Notes under the pieces: model-generated
Seen by the model: the letters and a program-made list of their open reading frames with translations, nothing else
Database searches by the model: none
Told to the model about the DNA's origin: nothing
DNA from: Chthoniobacterales bacterium
GTDB taxonomy: Bacteria; Verrucomicrobiota; Verrucomicrobiia; Chthoniobacterales; UBA10450
Direction of reading: 5' to 3'
Assembly: GCA_003244145.1 (NCBI GenBank)
Contig: QHBM01000070.1
Location: 16,061 to 28,902, forward strand
DNA length: 12,842 nt
Position numbers and translations under genes: made by a program
Shown: in pieces, positions 5,862 through 12,842 of the stretch
Numbering within the stretch: position 1 is the stretch's first letter
How the letters are laid out: each line of letters starts with the position of its first letter

Positions 5862-6174
5862 GCCGAATCTCGAAACCGCGGTAGGCCGGCGGATTTGGCA
5901 GAGGCGCTTCGGAATGCTTCTTAATATGAGCGCGCAGTTCGCTTTGCCCGATGGCTTCGAGGAAGGCGCGCACTTCCTCTTCTTCGCCCAAAGCCAGAAG
6001 CTCGACTCGGCCGTCTCGCAGATTGCGGATGGAGCCGGTGACGTCGAACCCTTTCGCTATCTGGCGGACGGAATAACGGAAACCGATCCCCTGCACATTT
6101 CCTTCGTAAAAGACCTGAATCGATGAAGTCACGCCATCGGAAGATTGATCCGGCCTGCTGCCGGCGGCAACCAC
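5854..6174 (-). CDS. acyP: Acylphosphatase
   Basis: 106-aa ORF with a GTG start. It carries both acylphosphatase signatures: YEGNVQGIGFRY (V-x-G-x-VQGV-x-FR) and GSIRNLRDGRVE (G-x-V-x-N-x-x-DG-x-V). It overlaps the ABC ATPase start by 8 nt. Confidence 0.8.
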   Translation of the reverse strand: MVAAGSRPDQSSDGVTSSIQVFYEGNVQGIGFRYSVRQIAKGFDVTGSIRNLRDGRVELLALGEEEEVRAFLEAIGQSELRAHIKKHSEAPLPNPPAYRGFEIRHE

Positions 6175-6184
6175 GCAGCGCGTT

Positions 6185-6691
6185 TTATTGATCCGGCCGG
6201 GGCAGTGGCGGCAGATCGGGATTCGGCAATTCCTCTGGCGGCGGCACCAGGCGCGGGTCGTTGGAATTGAGATTGAATTGCTCGGCCGCGGGGCGGTCGG
6301 AAGGCGTTGTCGCCACCGAATCAGCCGGGCGCGCGCTCACGGCCGCGACGAGGAGGGAAGAGGCCGGTTTGATTTCTTCGCTCAGGACATAACCCTGCTG
6401 CCCGGTCGCGACGACTTGAACTTTGCTGTAACCGAACGACGGGCGAATCAGTTTCACCAGCGTGTCCTTCGGCAACTTTGCGTCCGGATCGAGACCCGGC
6501 CGCGGGCCATGACGGAAAAAGGCGGCGGAGTCTGCGGTCACGGCAAAGAGTTTGCCGTCGGCGCTGGTTTTCTTGACAGCCTTAGGAGCGGTCGAGCAGC
6601 CTGTGAAAGAAACAGCGAGGAAGGCTCCGGTCAGAAGAAATGATCGAGCGCAACTCACGCCGCAAATAAAGCACGTGCCGCGCCACCTCAC
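6185..6691 (-). CDS. Hypothetical lipoprotein with an SH3b-like core and a Pro-rich tail
   Basis: Hydrophobic leader ending in a lipobox-like SFTG|C. The middle has an SH3b-like pattern (VKLIRPSFGYSKVQVVATGQQGYVLSEEIKP). The C-terminus is PPPEELPNPDLPPLPRP. The GTG start overlaps the upstream stop (GTGA at 6688-6691), and the exact start is uncertain. Confidence 0.55.
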   Translation of the reverse strand: MRWRGTCFICGVSCARSFLLTGAFLAVSFTGCSTAPKAVKKTSADGKLFAVTADSAAFFRHGPRPGLDPDAKLPKDTLVKLIRPSFGYSKVQVVATGQQGYVLSEEIKPASSLLVAAVSARPADSVATTPSDRPAAEQFNLNSNDPRLVPPPEELPNPDLPPLPRPDQ

Positions 6692-7122
6692 TTATACGAA
6701 TAGACCAGGCAGAACGCGGTGGGTTCGCCTTCGAGAAAACTGACGGAAACAAAATACTGCCCGCTCGTCGTCGGAGAAAATCCGGCCGCGGCCCGTTCGC
6801 CCTCATTGTAAGTCTCGGTTGTCAGCGGCTTCCCTGTTTCGTCGAAAAGGTCGACTGCGATTTTTTTCGCCTTCGTATTCGCGGCTGCGGCAAACCAATA
6901 TTGGTTTCCGGCGTAGAGATTTACCGCCACGAGCGCACGTTCGGCCGGCTTGATTTGCCCCGCCCAATGACCGTCGCGGAGTTTAAAGCCGTCATTAGTA
7001 AATGCGCCGGTGAGATCGAGCACCAACCGATGCGCCTCCACTTCGTCATCGGTCTCGGCGCGGAGGACCGGTCCGGCCGCAAAGACAACCAAGCCCAACA
7101 GAATCGCGAGGCGCCGCTTCAT
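6688..7122 (-). CDS. Hypothetical exported protein (beta-rich)
   Basis: 144-aa ORF with a clear Sec signal peptide (MKRRLAILLGLVVFAAGPVLRA|E). I recognise no motif. Its ATG overlaps the upstream gene's stop (ATGA at 7119-7122). Confidence 0.6.
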   Translation of the reverse strand: MKRRLAILLGLVVFAAGPVLRAETDDEVEAHRLVLDLTGAFTNDGFKLRDGHWAGQIKPAERALVAVNLYAGNQYWFAAAANTKAKKIAVDLFDETGKPLTTETYNEGERAAAGFSPTTSGQYFVSVSFLEGEPTAFCLVYSYK

Positions 7123-7928
7123 TTCGCGTCCCCCTTGCTTTGGATTTCTTCGATCAACTTCGTCACGGCTTGATTAAGTTTGCGCACTTCTTCGAGGGTC
7201 GGTTTACCCGATTGAAACGCGACCAGTTTCTCCAGGCCGGTCAGTTGTTCGTTCACGCTCTTGACCAGCGGCTCGTTCCGTAACTCCGGGCTGACGGCGT
7301 TGATCTTGGAATGAATGAAATTAATTACCGCCGGCTGACGCAAAACTTTGGCGCTGCGCTCATCATAATTCTTGATCACGGAAGCGCTCACCACCTGCGT
7401 TCCGCGGATCCAGCCGCCGAGGCTGACGAGGATGACCAGGTCCTGGTCCTGATGCGATTGCATCGACGTTTTCACTTCGTTCTGGGTGGCTTCGAGCTCT
7501 TCCTGGAGCGTGTCCCATTCGCTGTTCTCCGCAAATTCATTGATGCTATTGCCGCGGCTGAGCACGTTCTCACTCACCCCGAGCGCTTTCGCGAGCTTGA
7601 TGATGTCGGTGCCGATGTTCTTCACCTGCTGGCTGTCCTGCGCTTCCACGGCGATGAAACCGTCCGCGATCAGGCCGCCGAGATTGAGCGCGATCTGGGC
7701 GCGATTGCGATAAGTCATCGGAATCGGCGTGCGGTATTGGCCGGCCCAATCGGGCTTGCCCGGTTTTTCGAGCGCCGCAAAAAGTTCGCCCGGTGTGGGA
7801 ATGGTGAGCGAATCGGTCTTGATCGCCTTGGCCATTTGTTCCGCCGACAGCGGCGCTGGCTCCGCCGCGAAAGCCAGGGCTGCGCTCGCGCAAAGAGCCA
7901 GCGTTCCCATGCATTTCCGAAAAACCAT
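7119..7928 (-). CDS. Hypothetical exported protein (helical)
   Basis: 269-aa ORF with a signal peptide (MVFRKCMGTLALCASAALAFA|AEP). It is the first gene of the - strand run. I recognise no motif. Confidence 0.6.
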   Translation of the reverse strand: MVFRKCMGTLALCASAALAFAAEPAPLSAEQMAKAIKTDSLTIPTPGELFAALEKPGKPDWAGQYRTPIPMTYRNRAQIALNLGGLIADGFIAVEAQDSQQVKNIGTDIIKLAKALGVSENVLSRGNSINEFAENSEWDTLQEELEATQNEVKTSMQSHQDQDLVILVSLGGWIRGTQVVSASVIKNYDERSAKVLRQPAVINFIHSKINAVSPELRNEPLVKSVNEQLTGLEKLVAFQSGKPTLEEVRKLNQAVTKLIEEIQSKGDAK

Positions 7929-8009: not shown

Positions 8010-9332
<1,323 letters not shown>

Positions 9333-9333
<1 letters not shown>

Positions 9334-9680
9334 TGGATCATCCGGGCTATGGGGATTTTCGCGCGCGACGTGAGGCCACGGTTTGGCAGCGTCTCAACAG
9401 CGTTCTGCGCGTGTTGCTCGTCGTCGCGACTCTGCTCGTGATCGTGAGTCTGTTCGTGCCGCCCTATAAAAAACTGACGCAGAGCCGCAGTGAAATCGAG
9501 AACCTGCAAGCGCAGGTGAACGATCAGAAAATGTTACTCGCCCGCGCGACGCGCGAAGTGACCGTGCTGAAAACCGACGCAAGTTATCTGGAAACGATGG
9601 CGCGCGATCGTCTTGATTTGATGAAGGAAGGCGAAACGATCTTTCGCCTGGAGCCTCCGTCCGCGCCGAAGCGGAAATAA
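9333..9680 (+). CDS. ftsB: Septum formation initiator family protein (FtsB/DivIC-like)
   Basis: 115-aa ORF with a single TM helix (VLRVLLVVATLLVIVSLFV) followed by a coiled coil (IENLQAQVNDQKMLLARATREV) and the family-typical YLETMARDRLDLMKEGETIF. The GTG start overlaps the eno stop by 1 nt (TAGTG). eno-ftsB adjacency is a common arrangement. Confidence 0.75.
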
Positions 9681-9861: not shown

Positions 9862-9933
9862 ATGAGCTTTAAAACCAAATTCACCCTCGCCGCAGTTCTC
9901 TTCCTCGTGGTCGCGTTCAACCGCGCGGAAGCA
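9862..9933 (+). other. Sec signal peptide of the repeat protein
   Basis: MSFKTKFTLAAVLFLVVAFNRAEA|QL has a basic n-region, a hydrophobic core and an AxA cleavage motif. Confidence 0.75.
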
Positions 9934-12045
9934 CAATTAAGTTACGACGTCACCGATCTGGGAACGCTAGGTGGAACGACGAGCACCGCCAGCACCGCAG
10001 GGCAACAAAACGCCAACGCCGCGGGCATGATCGTGGGGTCGTCGACGACGAGCGATAACACTGAACATGCCTTCCTCTACACCAACGGGCAGATGTTCGA
10101 CCTGAACACGCTCTGCGATTTAGCGTCGAGCAACTTCAAGGTGCTGACGTTGGCAAGAGCCATCAACGATGACTGCGTCATTGTCGGCGACGGCATCACG
10201 GTGAACGGCGAAAAGCATGCCTTCTTGATGAGGCCCGCGGTCGTTGATGGCGGCCGGTGGTCTTATCGGTGCTGTCAGTGGGTTTGGATCCAGGAAGGCG
10301 GCGGCTGGTGGTGGGAAAACGATTGTCATTGTTACAAGTGGCACGGACCTCCGGGAAACCATCCGCCGTGTCCGCCGCAACCGCCGCATTGTTGGTGGTG
10401 GCCGCTGCCATGTCCACCCGACTGCGGCTGCGAGCCGCCGCCACCGCCGCCTAACTATTACTATTGTTGCATCAGGGGCCACATCGTCCTGGTCACGGCG
10501 GATGAATGCGCGGCCAAGGGCGGGCAACGCTTCGATTCGCTGGAAGAAGCGCGCAAGAATTGCAGGCCTTACTGGTACTGCCTTGATAAGAAAGTTATCC
10601 AGACAACCTGGACTGACTGCCAGGCGAAAGGACTCCAATGTTACGACTCGCCCGGAGAAGCGAAGAAAAATTGCGACACCAAGATTTGCTGGACTTGCGT
10701 CGATGGAAGGGTCGTGAAAACGACCGAAGCAGAAGCGGGTTCGAAGGGTTGGCGATGCTTCCCGACGGAAGAAGAAGCGCTCCGGAACTGTATCCCGAGA
10801 GAGTGCTGGTACTGTGTCGACGGCAAAGTGAAAAAGGGAACCGAGGCAGAAGCCAGCGCCCTCGGGCTCAAATGCTATCCGACAGCGGAAGAAGCGCGCC
10901 GGAATTGTGAGAAGTTGTGTTGGTGCTGCTTCCAGGGACCTAACGGAAAAGAACTGGTTCAACTGACGGAAGCGGAGTGCAAGGCGCGGGGCGGCCAGTG
11001 TTACAGTTCGGTGGAAGAAGCCCGCCGGCGCGGTTGCGCACCGAAGCTTTGCTGGGTCTGCATCGACGGAAAGGCTGTCCAGGTCCCCGAGACGGAAGCG
11101 GCAGCAAAAGGTCGCAAATGCTATCCTACGAAAGAAGCCGCGCTGCGGGATTGCCGGCAAACATGGTGGTGCTGCATCAACGGACAAATTGTCCGGGCGA
11201 CAGAGGAAGAATGCCGGGCCAAGGGCGGGAGATTGTTCCGCACTGAAGAAGAAGCGCGGAGAGAGTGCAGCGGCAGACCTTGCTGGGTTTGCATCGATGG
11301 CAAAGTTATCCAGCTCACCGAGGCCGAGGCGCGGGCGAGAAACGTGCAATGTTACCGCTCCGAGGAAGAAGCACGGCGGAATTGCGAGAAAAAGACCTGT
11401 TGGATTTGTAAAGACGGACAGGTCGTCCAGGTCACCCAAGCCGAGGCGGCAGGAGCCAAGTGTTACAGCACCAGAGAAGAAGCGCTCCGGAATTGCAAGC
11501 AAAGGACCTGTTGGATCTGTCGAGACGGACAGGCGGTGCAGGTGACTGAGGCGGAGGCGGCAGGAGCCAAGTGTTATGGTTCCCGAGAAGAAGCGCTCAG
11601 GAATTGCGGCGGCGACAAACGTTGCTGGGTTTGCATCGACGGAAGGGTCACTCAGCTAACTGAGGCCCAGGCCAAGGGGAGAGGTCTCCAGTGCTATGGT
11701 TCTCAAGGAGAAGCCGCCGCGGCCTGCAAACCGAAAACGAGTTGTTGGGTTTGTGTGGGTGGACGCGTAACCCAGCTTACCGAAGCACAGGCCAAAGCGC
11801 GCGGCGCGCAGTGCTACAGCTCAAGGGAAGAAGCGCAACGGAATTGCCAGCAGGAAACGAAATGCTGGACGTGCATAGACGGCCAGGTGCTTCAACTAAC
11901 CGAGGCACAGGCGAAGGCCAGAGGTGGCCAGTGCTATGGTTCGAGAGCAGAAGCAGCGAGGGTTTGTGGTGGACAAAAGCCGACACCGAGGCCGACACCG
12001 AGGTTCACGCCGAGGCCCACGCCGACGCCACCAATCATTCGGTAG
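9862..12045 (+). CDS. Secreted 727-aa modular Cys/Trp-rich repeat protein. It contains a signal peptide, two HAF repeats, a W/C/P-rich segment, 13 four-Cys modules and a PT-rich tail. Function is unknown.
   Basis: It is the longest ORF in the window and is preceded by a 181-nt intergenic region. The internal periodicity is at protein level. Individual parts are listed as separate features. Confidence 0.85.
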   Translation: MSFKTKFTLAAVLFLVVAFNRAEAQLSYDVTDLGTLGGTTSTASTAGQQNANAAGMIVGSSTTSDNTEHAFLYTNGQMFDLNTLCDLASSNFKVLTLARAINDDCVIVGDGITVNGEKHAFLMRPAVVDGGRWSYRCCQWVWIQEGGGWWWENDCHCYKWHGPPGNHPPCPPQPPHCWWWPLPCPPDCGCEPPPPPPNYYYCCIRGHIVLVTADECAAKGGQRFDSLEEARKNCRPYWYCLDKKVIQTTWTDCQAKGLQCYDSPGEAKKNCDTKICWTCVDGRVVKTTEAEAGSKGWRCFPTEEEALRNCIPRECWYCVDGKVKKGTEAEASALGLKCYPTAEEARRNCEKLCWCCFQGPNGKELVQLTEAECKARGGQCYSSVEEARRRGCAPKLCWVCIDGKAVQVPETEAAAKGRKCYPTKEAALRDCRQTWWCCINGQIVRATEEECRAKGGRLFRTEEEARRECSGRPCWVCIDGKVIQLTEAEARARNVQCYRSEEEARRNCEKKTCWICKDGQVVQVTQAEAAGAKCYSTREEALRNCKQRTCWICRDGQAVQVTEAEAAGAKCYGSREEALRNCGGDKRCWVCIDGRVTQLTEAQAKGRGLQCYGSQGEAAAACKPKTSCWVCVGGRVTQLTEAQAKARGAQCYSSREEAQRNCQQETKCWTCIDGQVLQLTEAQAKARGGQCYGSRAEAARVCGGQKPTPRPTPRFTPRPTPTPPIIR
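9940..10236 (+). other. Two HAF-family extracellular repeats
   Basis: The first is DVTDLGTLGG...AAGMIVGSS...EHAFLYTNGQMFDLNTL and the second ...AINDDCVIVGDG...GEKHAFLMRP. Both fit the 'probable extracellular repeat, HAF family' pattern (DLGTLGG ... G-x-[IV]VG ... HAF[LI][YW]). Confidence 0.65.
10255..10464 (+). other. Trp/Cys/Pro-rich low-complexity segment
   Basis: Residues 132-201 read RWSYRCCQWVWIQEGGGWWWENDCHCYKWHGPPGNHPPCPPQPPHCWWWPLPCPPDCGCEPPPPPPNYYY. Ten Trp fall within about 48 residues, including two WWW triplets, and there are nine Cys. Confidence 0.9.
10465..11967 (+). repeat. Thirteen tandem protein-level repeats (period about 111-132 nt, or 37-44 aa) of a four-cysteine module
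   Basis: Module starts are at nt 10465, 10570, 10687, 10804, 10918, 11050, 11164, 11281, 11398, 11509, 11623, 11743 and 11863. The consensus is CWxC[IV]DGxVxQ[LV]TEA[EQ]AxAxGxxCYxSxEEAxRNC. Confidence 0.9.
11977..12042 (+). other. Pro/Thr/Arg-rich C-terminal tail
   Basis: The tail is KPTPRPTPRFTPRPTPTPPIIR, a reiterated TPRP-like unit. No hydrophobic anchor follows it. Confidence 0.85.
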
Positions 12046-12112: not shown

Positions 12113-12842
12113 ATGGCCAGTGAAGTGTCGGTGATCGAATCAGAAGCACTCCAGTCGCGCGTGCGCGAATTGCGGAGGTTTCTTTGACGTCCCGAAACTG
12201 GAAGGACAACTAAACGCGCTGGAAGAGCGCATGTCTGCGGCCGATTTCTGGTCGAACCGCGAGCGAGCGCAGGGGGACGTCGAAGAAGTCTCGCGCATCC
12301 GTTCGTTGCTGAATCCGCTGCGCGAACTGGAACGCGCGGTTGCGGATTTCGAAGCACTCCGCCAGCTTGCGGCGGAAGAAACCGATCCCGCTCATCGCGC
12401 GGAAGCGGAAAAAGAGCTCGCGAGCGAACAGGGCCCGCTGCTCCACCGGCTCGAGGAATTCGAGCTGCGCCAATTTCTTTCCGGCGAAAACGATCGGTCG
12501 AACGCGTTCTTGACCATCCACTCCGGCGCGGGCGGAACGGAATCGTGCGACTGGGCGGACATGCTGTTGCGGATGTATCAGCGCTGGATCGAACGAAGCG
12601 GTTTCACTTCGCAAACGATCGACGTGCAAGTCGGCGAAGAAGTGGGCATCAAATCGACGACGCTGCTGGTGCAGGGCGAATACGCTTACGGCTATCTCAG
12701 TGCGGAACGCGGCGTCCACCGGCTCGTGCGCATTTCTCCCTTCGATGCGAACAAGCGCCGGCACACCTCCTTCGCGAGCGTGGACGTCGTCCCCGAGATC
12801 GCGGATTCGGCGCCGATCGATATCAACCCGGCCGACATCGAG
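12113..12842 (+). CDS. prfB: Peptide chain release factor 2, requiring a programmed +1 frameshift: join(12113..12184,12186..12842). The 3' end lies outside the window.
   Basis: Frame 0 encodes MASEVSVIESEALQSRVRELRRFL and then TGA at 12185-12187. The +1 frame continues DVPKLEGQLNALEERMSAADFWSNRERAQ ... FLTIHSGAGGTESCDWADMLLRMYQRW ... GIKSTTLLVQGEYAYGYLSAERGVHRLVRISPFDANKRRHTSFASVDVVPE. That stretch includes the RF2-specific SPF tripeptide (12735-12743). The gene is absent from the ORF track because part 2 has no start and no stop inside the window. Confidence 0.92.
12174..12188 (+). promoter_or_regulatory. RF2 autoregulatory +1 frameshift site
   Basis: GGAGG TTT CTT TGA C consists of an internal SD-like element, a 3-nt spacer, the slippery CUU and UGA followed by C. 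E. coli prfB has the same layout (AGGGGG UAU CUU UGA C). Confidence 0.88.

Follow-up and report, generated by a model that had tools for sequence, protein, structure and literature searches.

A candidate family of disulfide-rich tandem mini-domains in a predicted secreted protein of a Chthoniobacterales bacterium

The repeat gene and its thirteen modules

The window studied here is a 12,842-nucleotide (nt) stretch of contig QHBM01000070.1 (assembly GCA_003244145.1) from a Chthoniobacterales bacterium, and all positions refer to this whole stretch. On its forward strand lies a gene for a predicted secreted protein of 727 residues that carries 13 small cysteine-rich modules, set back to back over residues 200 to 702, with a HAF-repeat head on the N-terminal side and a tail on the C-terminal side (Table 1). 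The array is dense in cysteine, with 54 Cys in 501 residues. The same 727-residue gene is likewise called in the metagenome-assembled genome (MAG) assembly GCA_036819535.1 (contig DAIRXU010000040.1). An earlier note on this stretch had described 13 tandem modules at nt 10465 to 11967 as a candidate new repeat domain. These positions mapped exactly onto the open reading frame (ORF), nt 10465 being residue 202 and nt 11967 the end of Cys702, and a hidden Markov model (HMM) built from the 13 segments recovered exactly 13 modules (residues 200 to 706) and none elsewhere in the protein. The module starts stood as listed except that of module 1, which had been put at residue 202 and which the alignment places at residue 200. 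The module boundaries of the note are also the structural ones, because the long proline-rich linkers found in the family lie between column 35 of one module and column 1 of the next.

Table 1. Coordinates of the repeat gene and of its features in the window; column numbers are those of the module alignment.
Feature	Residues	Position (nt)	Strand	Description	Basis
Secreted repeat protein gene (predicted)	727 in all	9862..12045 (stop codon included)	+		ORF list
Predicted Sec signal peptide	1-24	9862..9933	+	MSFKTKFTLAAVLFLVVAFNRAEA	sequence reading
HAF-repeat head	~25-128	9934..10245	+		TIGR02913 match
Cys/Trp/Pro-rich segment	~129-199	10246..10458	+	CCQWVWIQEGGGWWWENDCHCYKWHGPPG...HCWWWPLPCPPDCGC, then poly-Pro run	conservation
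Module 1	200-234	10459..10563	+	YYCC...C...F...C; Cys at columns 3, 4, 17, and 35 (WCC type)	HMM, alignment
Module 2	237-271	10570..10674	+	YWYC...C...CY...C; Cys at columns 4, 17, 24, and 35	HMM
Module 3	276-310	10687..10791	+	CWxC...CF...C; Cys at columns 1, 4, 24, and 35	HMM
Module 4	315-349	10804..10908	+	CWxC...CY...C	HMM
Module 5	353-392	10918..11037	+	six-Cys CWCC...C...CY...C; 4-residue hairpin insertion	HMM
Module 6	397-431	11050..11154	+	CWxC...CY...C	HMM
Module 7	435-469	11164..11268	+	WWCC...C...F...C (WCC type)	HMM
Module 8	474-508	11281..11385	+	CWxC...CY...C; target of the single-module structure model	HMM
Module 9	513-545	11398..11496	+	CWxC...CY...C; helix-1 loop 2 residues shorter	HMM
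Module 10	550-582	11509..11607	+	recent duplicate of module 9	DNA repeat, amino acid identity
Module 11	588-622	11623..11727	+	CWxC...CY...C	HMM
Module 12	628-662	11743..11847	+	CWxC...CY...C	HMM
Module 13	668-702	11863..11967	+	CWxC...CY...C	HMM
Pro/Thr/basic C-terminal tail	703-727	11968..12042	+	ends PTPTPPIIR	sequence reading

The modules show 40 to 67% identity to a reference module, and within the window protein C4, A31, and C35 are invariant. All 13 modules have Y or F at column 25, and column 2 is W in all but module 1, which has a tyrosine at the equivalent position. The four-cysteine CWxC...CY...NC pattern that the note had read as typical was partly borne out: 10 of the 13 modules carry a literal CWxC and 12 have four cysteines, but modules 1, 2, and 7 place their cysteines otherwise and module 5 has six. 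The cysteine count is thus even in every module. The arrangement in module 1 is kept in orthologues, and the unusual one in module 2 (..CCCC) is shared with orthologues from three further species (loci L005, L006, and L007). Modules 9 and 10 share 84% of their amino acids and lie in DNA that repeats in tandem with a 111-bp period and 80% matches; they are a recent duplication. In the window protein, the modules are joined by short linkers, many of them basic (EKKT, KQRT, GGDKR, and KPKTS).

Structure prediction with AlphaFold2 (AF2) agreed with the sequence of elements that had been proposed for the module, a hairpin, a helix, a CY turn, and a second helix, and placed a short strand at the CY. 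The predicted order is a β-hairpin over columns 2 to 11, a helix over columns 14 to 19, a short strand or bridge at Q-C-Y (columns 23 to 25), and a helix over columns 28 to 36. For adjacent modules, as the note had suggested, residues 353 to 473 were modeled; these three modules include all three cysteine frameworks, and the input was an 80-row alignment of three-module fragments. The predicted local distance difference test score (pLDDT) was 90.7 and the predicted template-modeling score 0.53; the individual modules are confidently predicted in this model and their mutual orientation is uncertain. Module 8 modeled singly from a 121-row alignment reached a pLDDT of 91.3.

A wider family and the pairing of its cysteines

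A word-indexed search returned about 40 module-bearing relatives, in which 1 to 18 modules follow a head of either the HAF or the FecR (PF04773) type. An exhaustive HMMER search with a 121-module profile against 1.84 billion cluster representatives then gave a far larger set, of 357 protein clusters (clustered at 50% identity) at an E value of ≤1e-3 and 197 at ≤1e-10. The repeats in the window are far beyond chance. Named members come from Candidatus Aminicenantes, Desulfobulbaceae, and Verrucomicrobiota; in at least three bacterial phyla, the family occurs in proteins of the cell surface and in proteases that are secreted.

A census of the 191 module-bearing proteins retrieved yielded 885 modules. 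The commonest form, with 503 modules, is WCC...C...F/Y...C, in which the cysteines stand at columns 3, 4, 17, and 35; a six-cysteine form with both variable pairs accounts for 186. The CWxC...CY...C type that dominates the window makes up only 76 of the 885 (about 9%), and the idea that this pattern is the framework of the family did not hold. The two types clearly align with each other, since comparison of the window modules with WCC-type modules by hhalign gave a probability of 99.2% (E = 6e-20) over 37 of 39 columns, and the family HMM recovers all 13 window modules. The CWxC...CY...C type is a lineage-specific variant of a wider family and not its defining pattern. The conserved positions other than cysteines are turn glycines, the helix N-caps (T/S-x-x-E), A31, and the aromatic residues at columns 2 and 25.

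The WCC-type arrays are found with CARDB, TIG, PKD, Big_7, and CBM96 domains and with Sortilin/BNR-like or lectin-like propellers, and they are joined to five unrelated peptidase families (C13, C25, M12A, M35, and HRXXH). Ig-like domains are also fused to arrays in other phyla. Of 95 complete proteins, 56 carry the array at the N terminus, 24 at the C terminus, and 15 in the interior; 86 of the 95 begin with a hydrophobic, signal-like stretch. Across the family, the linkers from column 35 to the next column 1 range from 0 to 59 residues and contain 17 to 22% proline.

The distribution of cysteines across modules is informative as to how they pair. In 222 modules of the close family, columns 4 and 35 are cysteine in 97 to 98%, and the variable cysteines covary as two pairs, columns 3 and 17 (phi = 0.80, P = 2e-33) and columns 1 and 24 (phi = 0.63, P = 7e-18), with negative or no association for the cross-combinations. 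Mean-field direct-coupling analysis of 776 unique modules ranked the pair 3-17 first and the pair 1-24 third, and couplings between residues four apart (14-18, 28-32, and 30-34) were consistent with both predicted helices. When the modules with both invariant cysteines were counted, 805 of 826 (97.5%) had an even number, 11 having two, 598 four, and 195 six; in six-column pattern counts, the eleven two-cysteine modules have theirs at columns 4 and 35 only. Cysteines that come and go in pairs and keep an even parity point to two or three disulfides per module and not to a Cys4 metal site, and the preference for disulfides, which the note had taken as the default, is strongly supported. In the six-cysteine form, the pattern of covariation would correspond to a pairing of cysteines 1-5, 2-4, and 3-6, a connectivity that we regard as probable.

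Comparison with known families

Scans of Pfam-A and NCBIfam with the whole protein, its relatives, and isolated modules found no model that covers the module. Sequence searches of the PDB with two module profiles gave nothing significant; the only similarity there was a 13-residue hairpin motif in the b5 domain of Cyb5R4 (E = 0.15), all other hits being spurious. Foldseek was run on both structure models against the PDB and on the single-module model also against BFVD; the best E values were 1.2 to 3.3, none of them significant. A 39-residue query has little statistical power in such a search, so a new fold can be neither claimed nor excluded. Literature searches found no description of the module. 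With the tools applied, no HMM-HMM match above 95% to an existing repeat with the same cysteine framework, the outcome that the note had named as a refutation, was obtained. The earlier note had judged the size and cysteine spacing to be unlike EGF, ShK, Kazal, Sel1, or zinc ribbon repeats, and neither these nor other curated cysteine-rich or short repeats matched in Pfam at E ≤ 10. Matched by no curated family searched and by no literature description found, the modules very probably constitute a new, disulfide-stapled domain family, in keeping with the repeat domain first proposed for them.

Two Pfam families did pass their cutoffs on the whole protein, Cyt-b5 and Meg, in both cases with scores summed over the repeats. 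Cyt-b5 (PF00173) scored 43.4 bits against a cutoff of 23.7, with alignments that span only profile positions 1 to 26 or 1 to 36 of 74; isolated window fragments reached at most 15.5 bits with two modules and had no match with one. Meg (PF24153) scored 29.0 bits as a sum over 5 stretches, in which about 21 to 45 of its 88 positions were aligned. The best single module against Meg, a six-cysteine module of relative P0005, scored 16.7 bits over 21 of the 88 positions (cutoff, 27), window module 5 scored 13.8 and two window modules together 20.0, and neither window module 8 nor one WCC-type module matched it singly. What is shared in each case is a local motif: C-W/Y-C-C plus a hairpin with the plant cysteine-rich peptides Meg and ESF1 (PF18209), and (C)W-x-(C)-I-x-G-x-V-Y/V-x-V-T with the N-terminal hairpin of b5. 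In all three comparisons profile coverage is partial, at 21 to 36 positions, and single modules fall below the cutoff or have no match; unlike cytochrome b5, the modules are without heme ligands, and the CxxCH heme-attachment motif had 0 matches. As partial, subthreshold, or summed hits, Cyt-b5, Meg, ESF1, TUNAR, L27, and CV_2116 were all rejected as the family of the module.

Annotation pipelines have labeled relatives P0006 and P0007 with PF00173 and family members with PF24153 (Meg), and the JGI (Joint Genome Institute) name for P0056 is "cytochrome b involved in lipid metabolism." The Cyt-b5, Meg, and cytochrome b labels are likely misannotations that stem from partial motifs summed over repeats. 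The CV_2116 domain (NCBIfam NF046097) gave 15.9 to 23.8 bits in relatives P0035, P0069, and P0005, against a cutoff of 58 and over about 37 to 68 of 75 profile positions, and the window protein itself had no match. These partial matches fall on the helix 1-strand-helix 2 part of the module, and the resemblance could reflect either a remote relationship or a common F/Y-x-S/T-x-x-E-A strand-plus-helix-cap motif.

The head of the window protein is a bona fide HAF region, like that of the HAF-repeat extracellular proteins: TIGR02913, with a cutoff of 22.65 bits, scored 63.1 over 2 stretches, of which residues 52 to 84 matched best. JGI names homologues accordingly. However, the HAF model spans residues ~30 to 125 only and not the 13 modules, which are also found under FecR and other heads. 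In general design, the arrays are comparable to EGF-like repeats and to the secreted cysteine-rich repeat proteins ("SCREPs," reviewed in PMC6262176), eukaryotic disulfide-rich extracellular repeats, in that all are tandem, independently folded, disulfide-stabilized mini-domains that are secreted and vary in copy number. Unlike those, the module family is bacterial, has a predicted α/β fold with two helices and another cysteine framework, and shows no profile match to them. CARDB, PKD, Big, and TIG domains fill the same niche, as accessory modules repeated within adhesins and secreted peptidases, and co-occur with the modules in the same proteins, but they are β-sandwiches of 80 to 100 residues without disulfides, whereas the module has about 35 residues and would rely on two or three disulfides. 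As a general kind, tandem extracellular mini-domains rich in disulfides are well known; what is new, as judged from the curated libraries and literature searched, is this family, with its cysteine frameworks and its bacterial distribution.

Dense arrays of this kind are common in eukaryotic secreted proteins and are rare and poorly catalogued in bacteria. With about 357 clusters in at least three phyla, the family could be deposited as a domain; pipelines now leave it unannotated or mislabel it. It would also offer, on a single backbone, a naturally occurring range of disulfide frameworks, of use for work on oxidative folding and for the design of mini-protein scaffolds.

Orthologues, readings of the array, and gene neighborhood

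With the whole protein as the query, only five close orthologues were found, 55 to 70% identical and from Chthoniobacterales/"Spartobacteria"/Verrucomicrobiota MAGs. Against four orthologues, the ratio of nonsynonymous to synonymous substitution rates (dN/dS) over the module region is 0.07 to 0.15, similar to that of the head, and the gene is thus under purifying selection; dS exceeds 1 and is saturated, which makes the ratios approximate. The modules follow the same order as in the closest relative, with 74 to 96% identity between orthologous modules, compared with 28 to 71% among paralogous ones. Window modules 7, 8, and 11 are missing from that relative, which indicates gain or loss in the interior of the array while the end modules are kept; modules 12 and 13 are 91% and 80% identical, respectively, to their orthologues at L005. 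The number of modules among syntenic orthologues varies from 7 to 13, and homogenization has affected the interior modules of an orthologue that is less closely related, two of them being identical. Residues 474 to 727, the last six modules plus the tail, line up in the same order with the entire array and tail of a FecR-headed relative (P0025) at 71% identity, and this match includes the terminal TPP(I/V)IR. Tails across the family are rich in proline, threonine, and basic residues and contain (K/R)PTPTP repeats; the ending PTPTP-x(0-3)-(I/V)IR is frequent and recurs in HAF- and FecR-headed proteins alike (relatives P0009 to P0039). This C terminus may be a Chthoniobacterales-specific sorting, anchoring, or recognition motif.

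We consider it probable, at roughly 0.6, that the array is a rod of disulfide-stapled mini-domains that acts in the cell envelope as a stalk or as a multivalent array. Each of the 13 repeats, about 35 residues long, would fold independently as a mini-domain and be oxidized to two or three disulfides after Sec export. An invariant staple between columns 4 and 35 would tie strand 1 to the far end of the second helix, and the opposite cluster would hold a bond between columns 3 and 17 in the WCC form, between columns 1 and 24 in the CWxC...CY...C form, or both in the six-cysteine form; this connectivity has good probability from the covariation described above, and disulfide formation and cellular location are both what we infer from sequence. 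Short, proline-rich linkers would join the modules into a stiff, beads-on-a-string rod between the HAF head and the Pro/Thr/basic tail. Such an array could serve as a protease-resistant, length-adjustable stalk that holds the head away from an attachment of the tail to the cell envelope, and it may in addition act itself as a multivalent binder. That a stalk or spacer is the main function is a tentative proposal, which draws on the variable copy number, the interior gain and loss, the proline-rich linkers, and the appearance of the array-plus-tail cassette under different heads.

Several points weigh against this explanation. Constraint on the module region is as strong as that on the head, and modules retain their individual identity between species; such constraint exceeds the need of a passive spacer and favors a binding role. 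The minority cysteine patterns.CC.CC, C.CC.C, and ..CCCC also occur, so that partners in the variable cluster appear not to be fixed, and this suggests that columns 1, 3, 17, and 24 form one spatial cluster that permits re-pairing. Direct-coupling scores that involve near-invariant columns (4-35 and 31-35) are unreliable, and the AF2 alignments were built from paralogous repeats.

The main rival is that the modules are multivalent ligand-binding or adhesin units, for polysaccharide, peptidoglycan, or a protein partner, in which case the array would give avidity and not length. The strong purifying selection over the module region, non-cysteine residues included, and the retention between species of position-specific module sequences both agree with this, and the near-invariant aromatic residues at columns 2 (W) and 25 (Y/F) could make a binding platform. 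The CARDB, TIG, PKD, and CBM96 domains and lectin-like propellers found beside the arrays are moreover typical of adhesins and glycan-active surface proteins. However, no conserved polar or charged surface patch is apparent; most of the conserved positions have obvious structural roles, the aromatic residues of a 35-residue domain are more likely its mini-core, and positions on the hairpin and helix surfaces vary across the family. Neither Pfam nor Foldseek gave any similarity to known binding modules. On balance we regard a binding array as rather unlikely, and as the reading that comes closest to the disulfide-stapled stalk.

Far less probable is a multiheaded inhibitor array, with the modules as Kazal-like protease inhibitors or as peptidase prodomains. 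Kazal domains (PF00050/PF07648; ovomucoid and LEKTI arrays) are likewise small (35 to 55 residues) and secreted, combine a hairpin with a helix, and form long tandem arrays. Their disulfide connectivity is 1-5, 2-4, 3-6, the same in the abstract as that proposed for the six-cysteine form, although the window modules mostly have four cysteines. The top Foldseek match of the single module was a 39-residue Kazal-type inhibitor domain (3pis), and family members are fused to the five peptidase families named above. The 3pis match is not significant, however (E = 2.3, template-modeling score of 0.42, root mean square deviation of 3.9 Å), and the Kazal signature (PROSITE PS00282, as a regular expression) had 0 matches, in line with the Pfam result. 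Cysteine spacing and the order of secondary structure also differ, with three cysteines within four residues on strand 1 of the module and a second helix. Most members are without a peptidase domain, and no conserved reactive-loop-like segment is seen.

A metal site, raised as a possibility in the note, would have each module bind Zn or Fe through four cysteines in the manner of a zinc ribbon or rubredoxin. Most modules do have at least four cysteines, and the window variant has a CxxC. Yet only the cysteines at columns 4 and 35 are invariant, so the other ligands would need to be swapped in pairs; the six-cysteine form is common and two-cysteine modules exist; and even parity is what disulfides and not metal sites predict. 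In the AF2 model the CxxC falls inside a β-strand and not in a knuckle turn, the protein is exported according to its predicted signal peptide, and Pfam gave no zinc ribbon or rubredoxin match. We consider this reading very improbable. We give slightly less credence still to a polyprotein precursor that is cut at its basic linkers into about 13 free disulfide-rich peptides (toxins, signals, or antimicrobials); the short, basic linkers of the window and the weak local similarity to plant Meg and ESF1 peptides fit with it, but linkers elsewhere run from 0 to 2 up to 59 proline-rich residues with no conserved cleavage motif, modules sit within large multidomain enzymes and adhesins, and head and tail are conserved along with the array. 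The reading of the modules as degenerate cytochrome b5-like heme-binding domains, suggested by the whole-protein Cyt-b5 score and by labels on relatives, is effectively refuted by the partial, summed nature of the profile matches, by a PDB similarity confined to the hairpin motif, and by the single His in the array (residues 202 to 702), which provides no axial ligands and makes b5-type heme ligation impossible.

A bolder extension of the disulfide-stapled rod, which we hold to be doubtful, joins two proposals. In the first, the module would be a new fold class whose disulfide framework has been rewired repeatedly on an unchanged backbone, through columns 3 and 17, columns 1 and 24, both, or re-pairing in one four-cysteine cluster. 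In the second, the array and its PTPTP-x-(I/V)IR end would be an unrecognized display or anchoring system of the Chthoniobacterales envelope with interchangeable HAF and FecR heads. The module-plus-tail cassette under two heads was flagged in Chthoniobacterales, soil bacteria that are abundant but for the most part uncultured and in which envelope proteins have hardly been studied.

Outside the array, the predicted signal peptide has, as judged by eye, a basic n-region, a 13-residue hydrophobic core, and AEA preceding Q25. The Cys/Trp/Pro-rich segment between head and modules had no family match in the Pfam-A and NCBIfam scans and is kept in every HAF-headed homologue; the region N-terminal of the modules contains 11 cysteines, an odd number. 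An antisense ORF of 460 residues (10120..11502, minus strand) overlaps the repeat region; its translation is repetitive and of low complexity, and it was dismissed because it is most probably a side effect of the GC-rich repeat and not a gene.

The order eno-divIC/ftsB-repeat gene-prfB is common to the window and to a 613-kb contig that carries a distant orthologue with seven modules. The eno-divIC/ftsB pair lies directly upstream in the same orientation (8050 to 9680 in the window and 6135 to 7887 at L002). When the surroundings of the gene were scanned for promoters and terminators, no plus-strand match exceeded the shuffled expectation, and with no plus-strand promoter or terminator consensus between divIC and the gene, the two could be cotranscribed. 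For a FecR-headed relative, P0040, the same two uncharacterized genes come next on two independent contigs (L003, 9370 to 10872, and L004, 1795 to 3297); they encode 238 and 178 residues without a Pfam match and may be functional partners. Downstream of the window gene, prfB (release factor 2; 12113 to 12842) has a canonical programmed +1 frameshift site, with an ATG at 12113, a Shine-Dalgarno-like GGAGG, and then CTTTGAC at 12182 to 12188, and the gene call in the assembly begins only at 12231.

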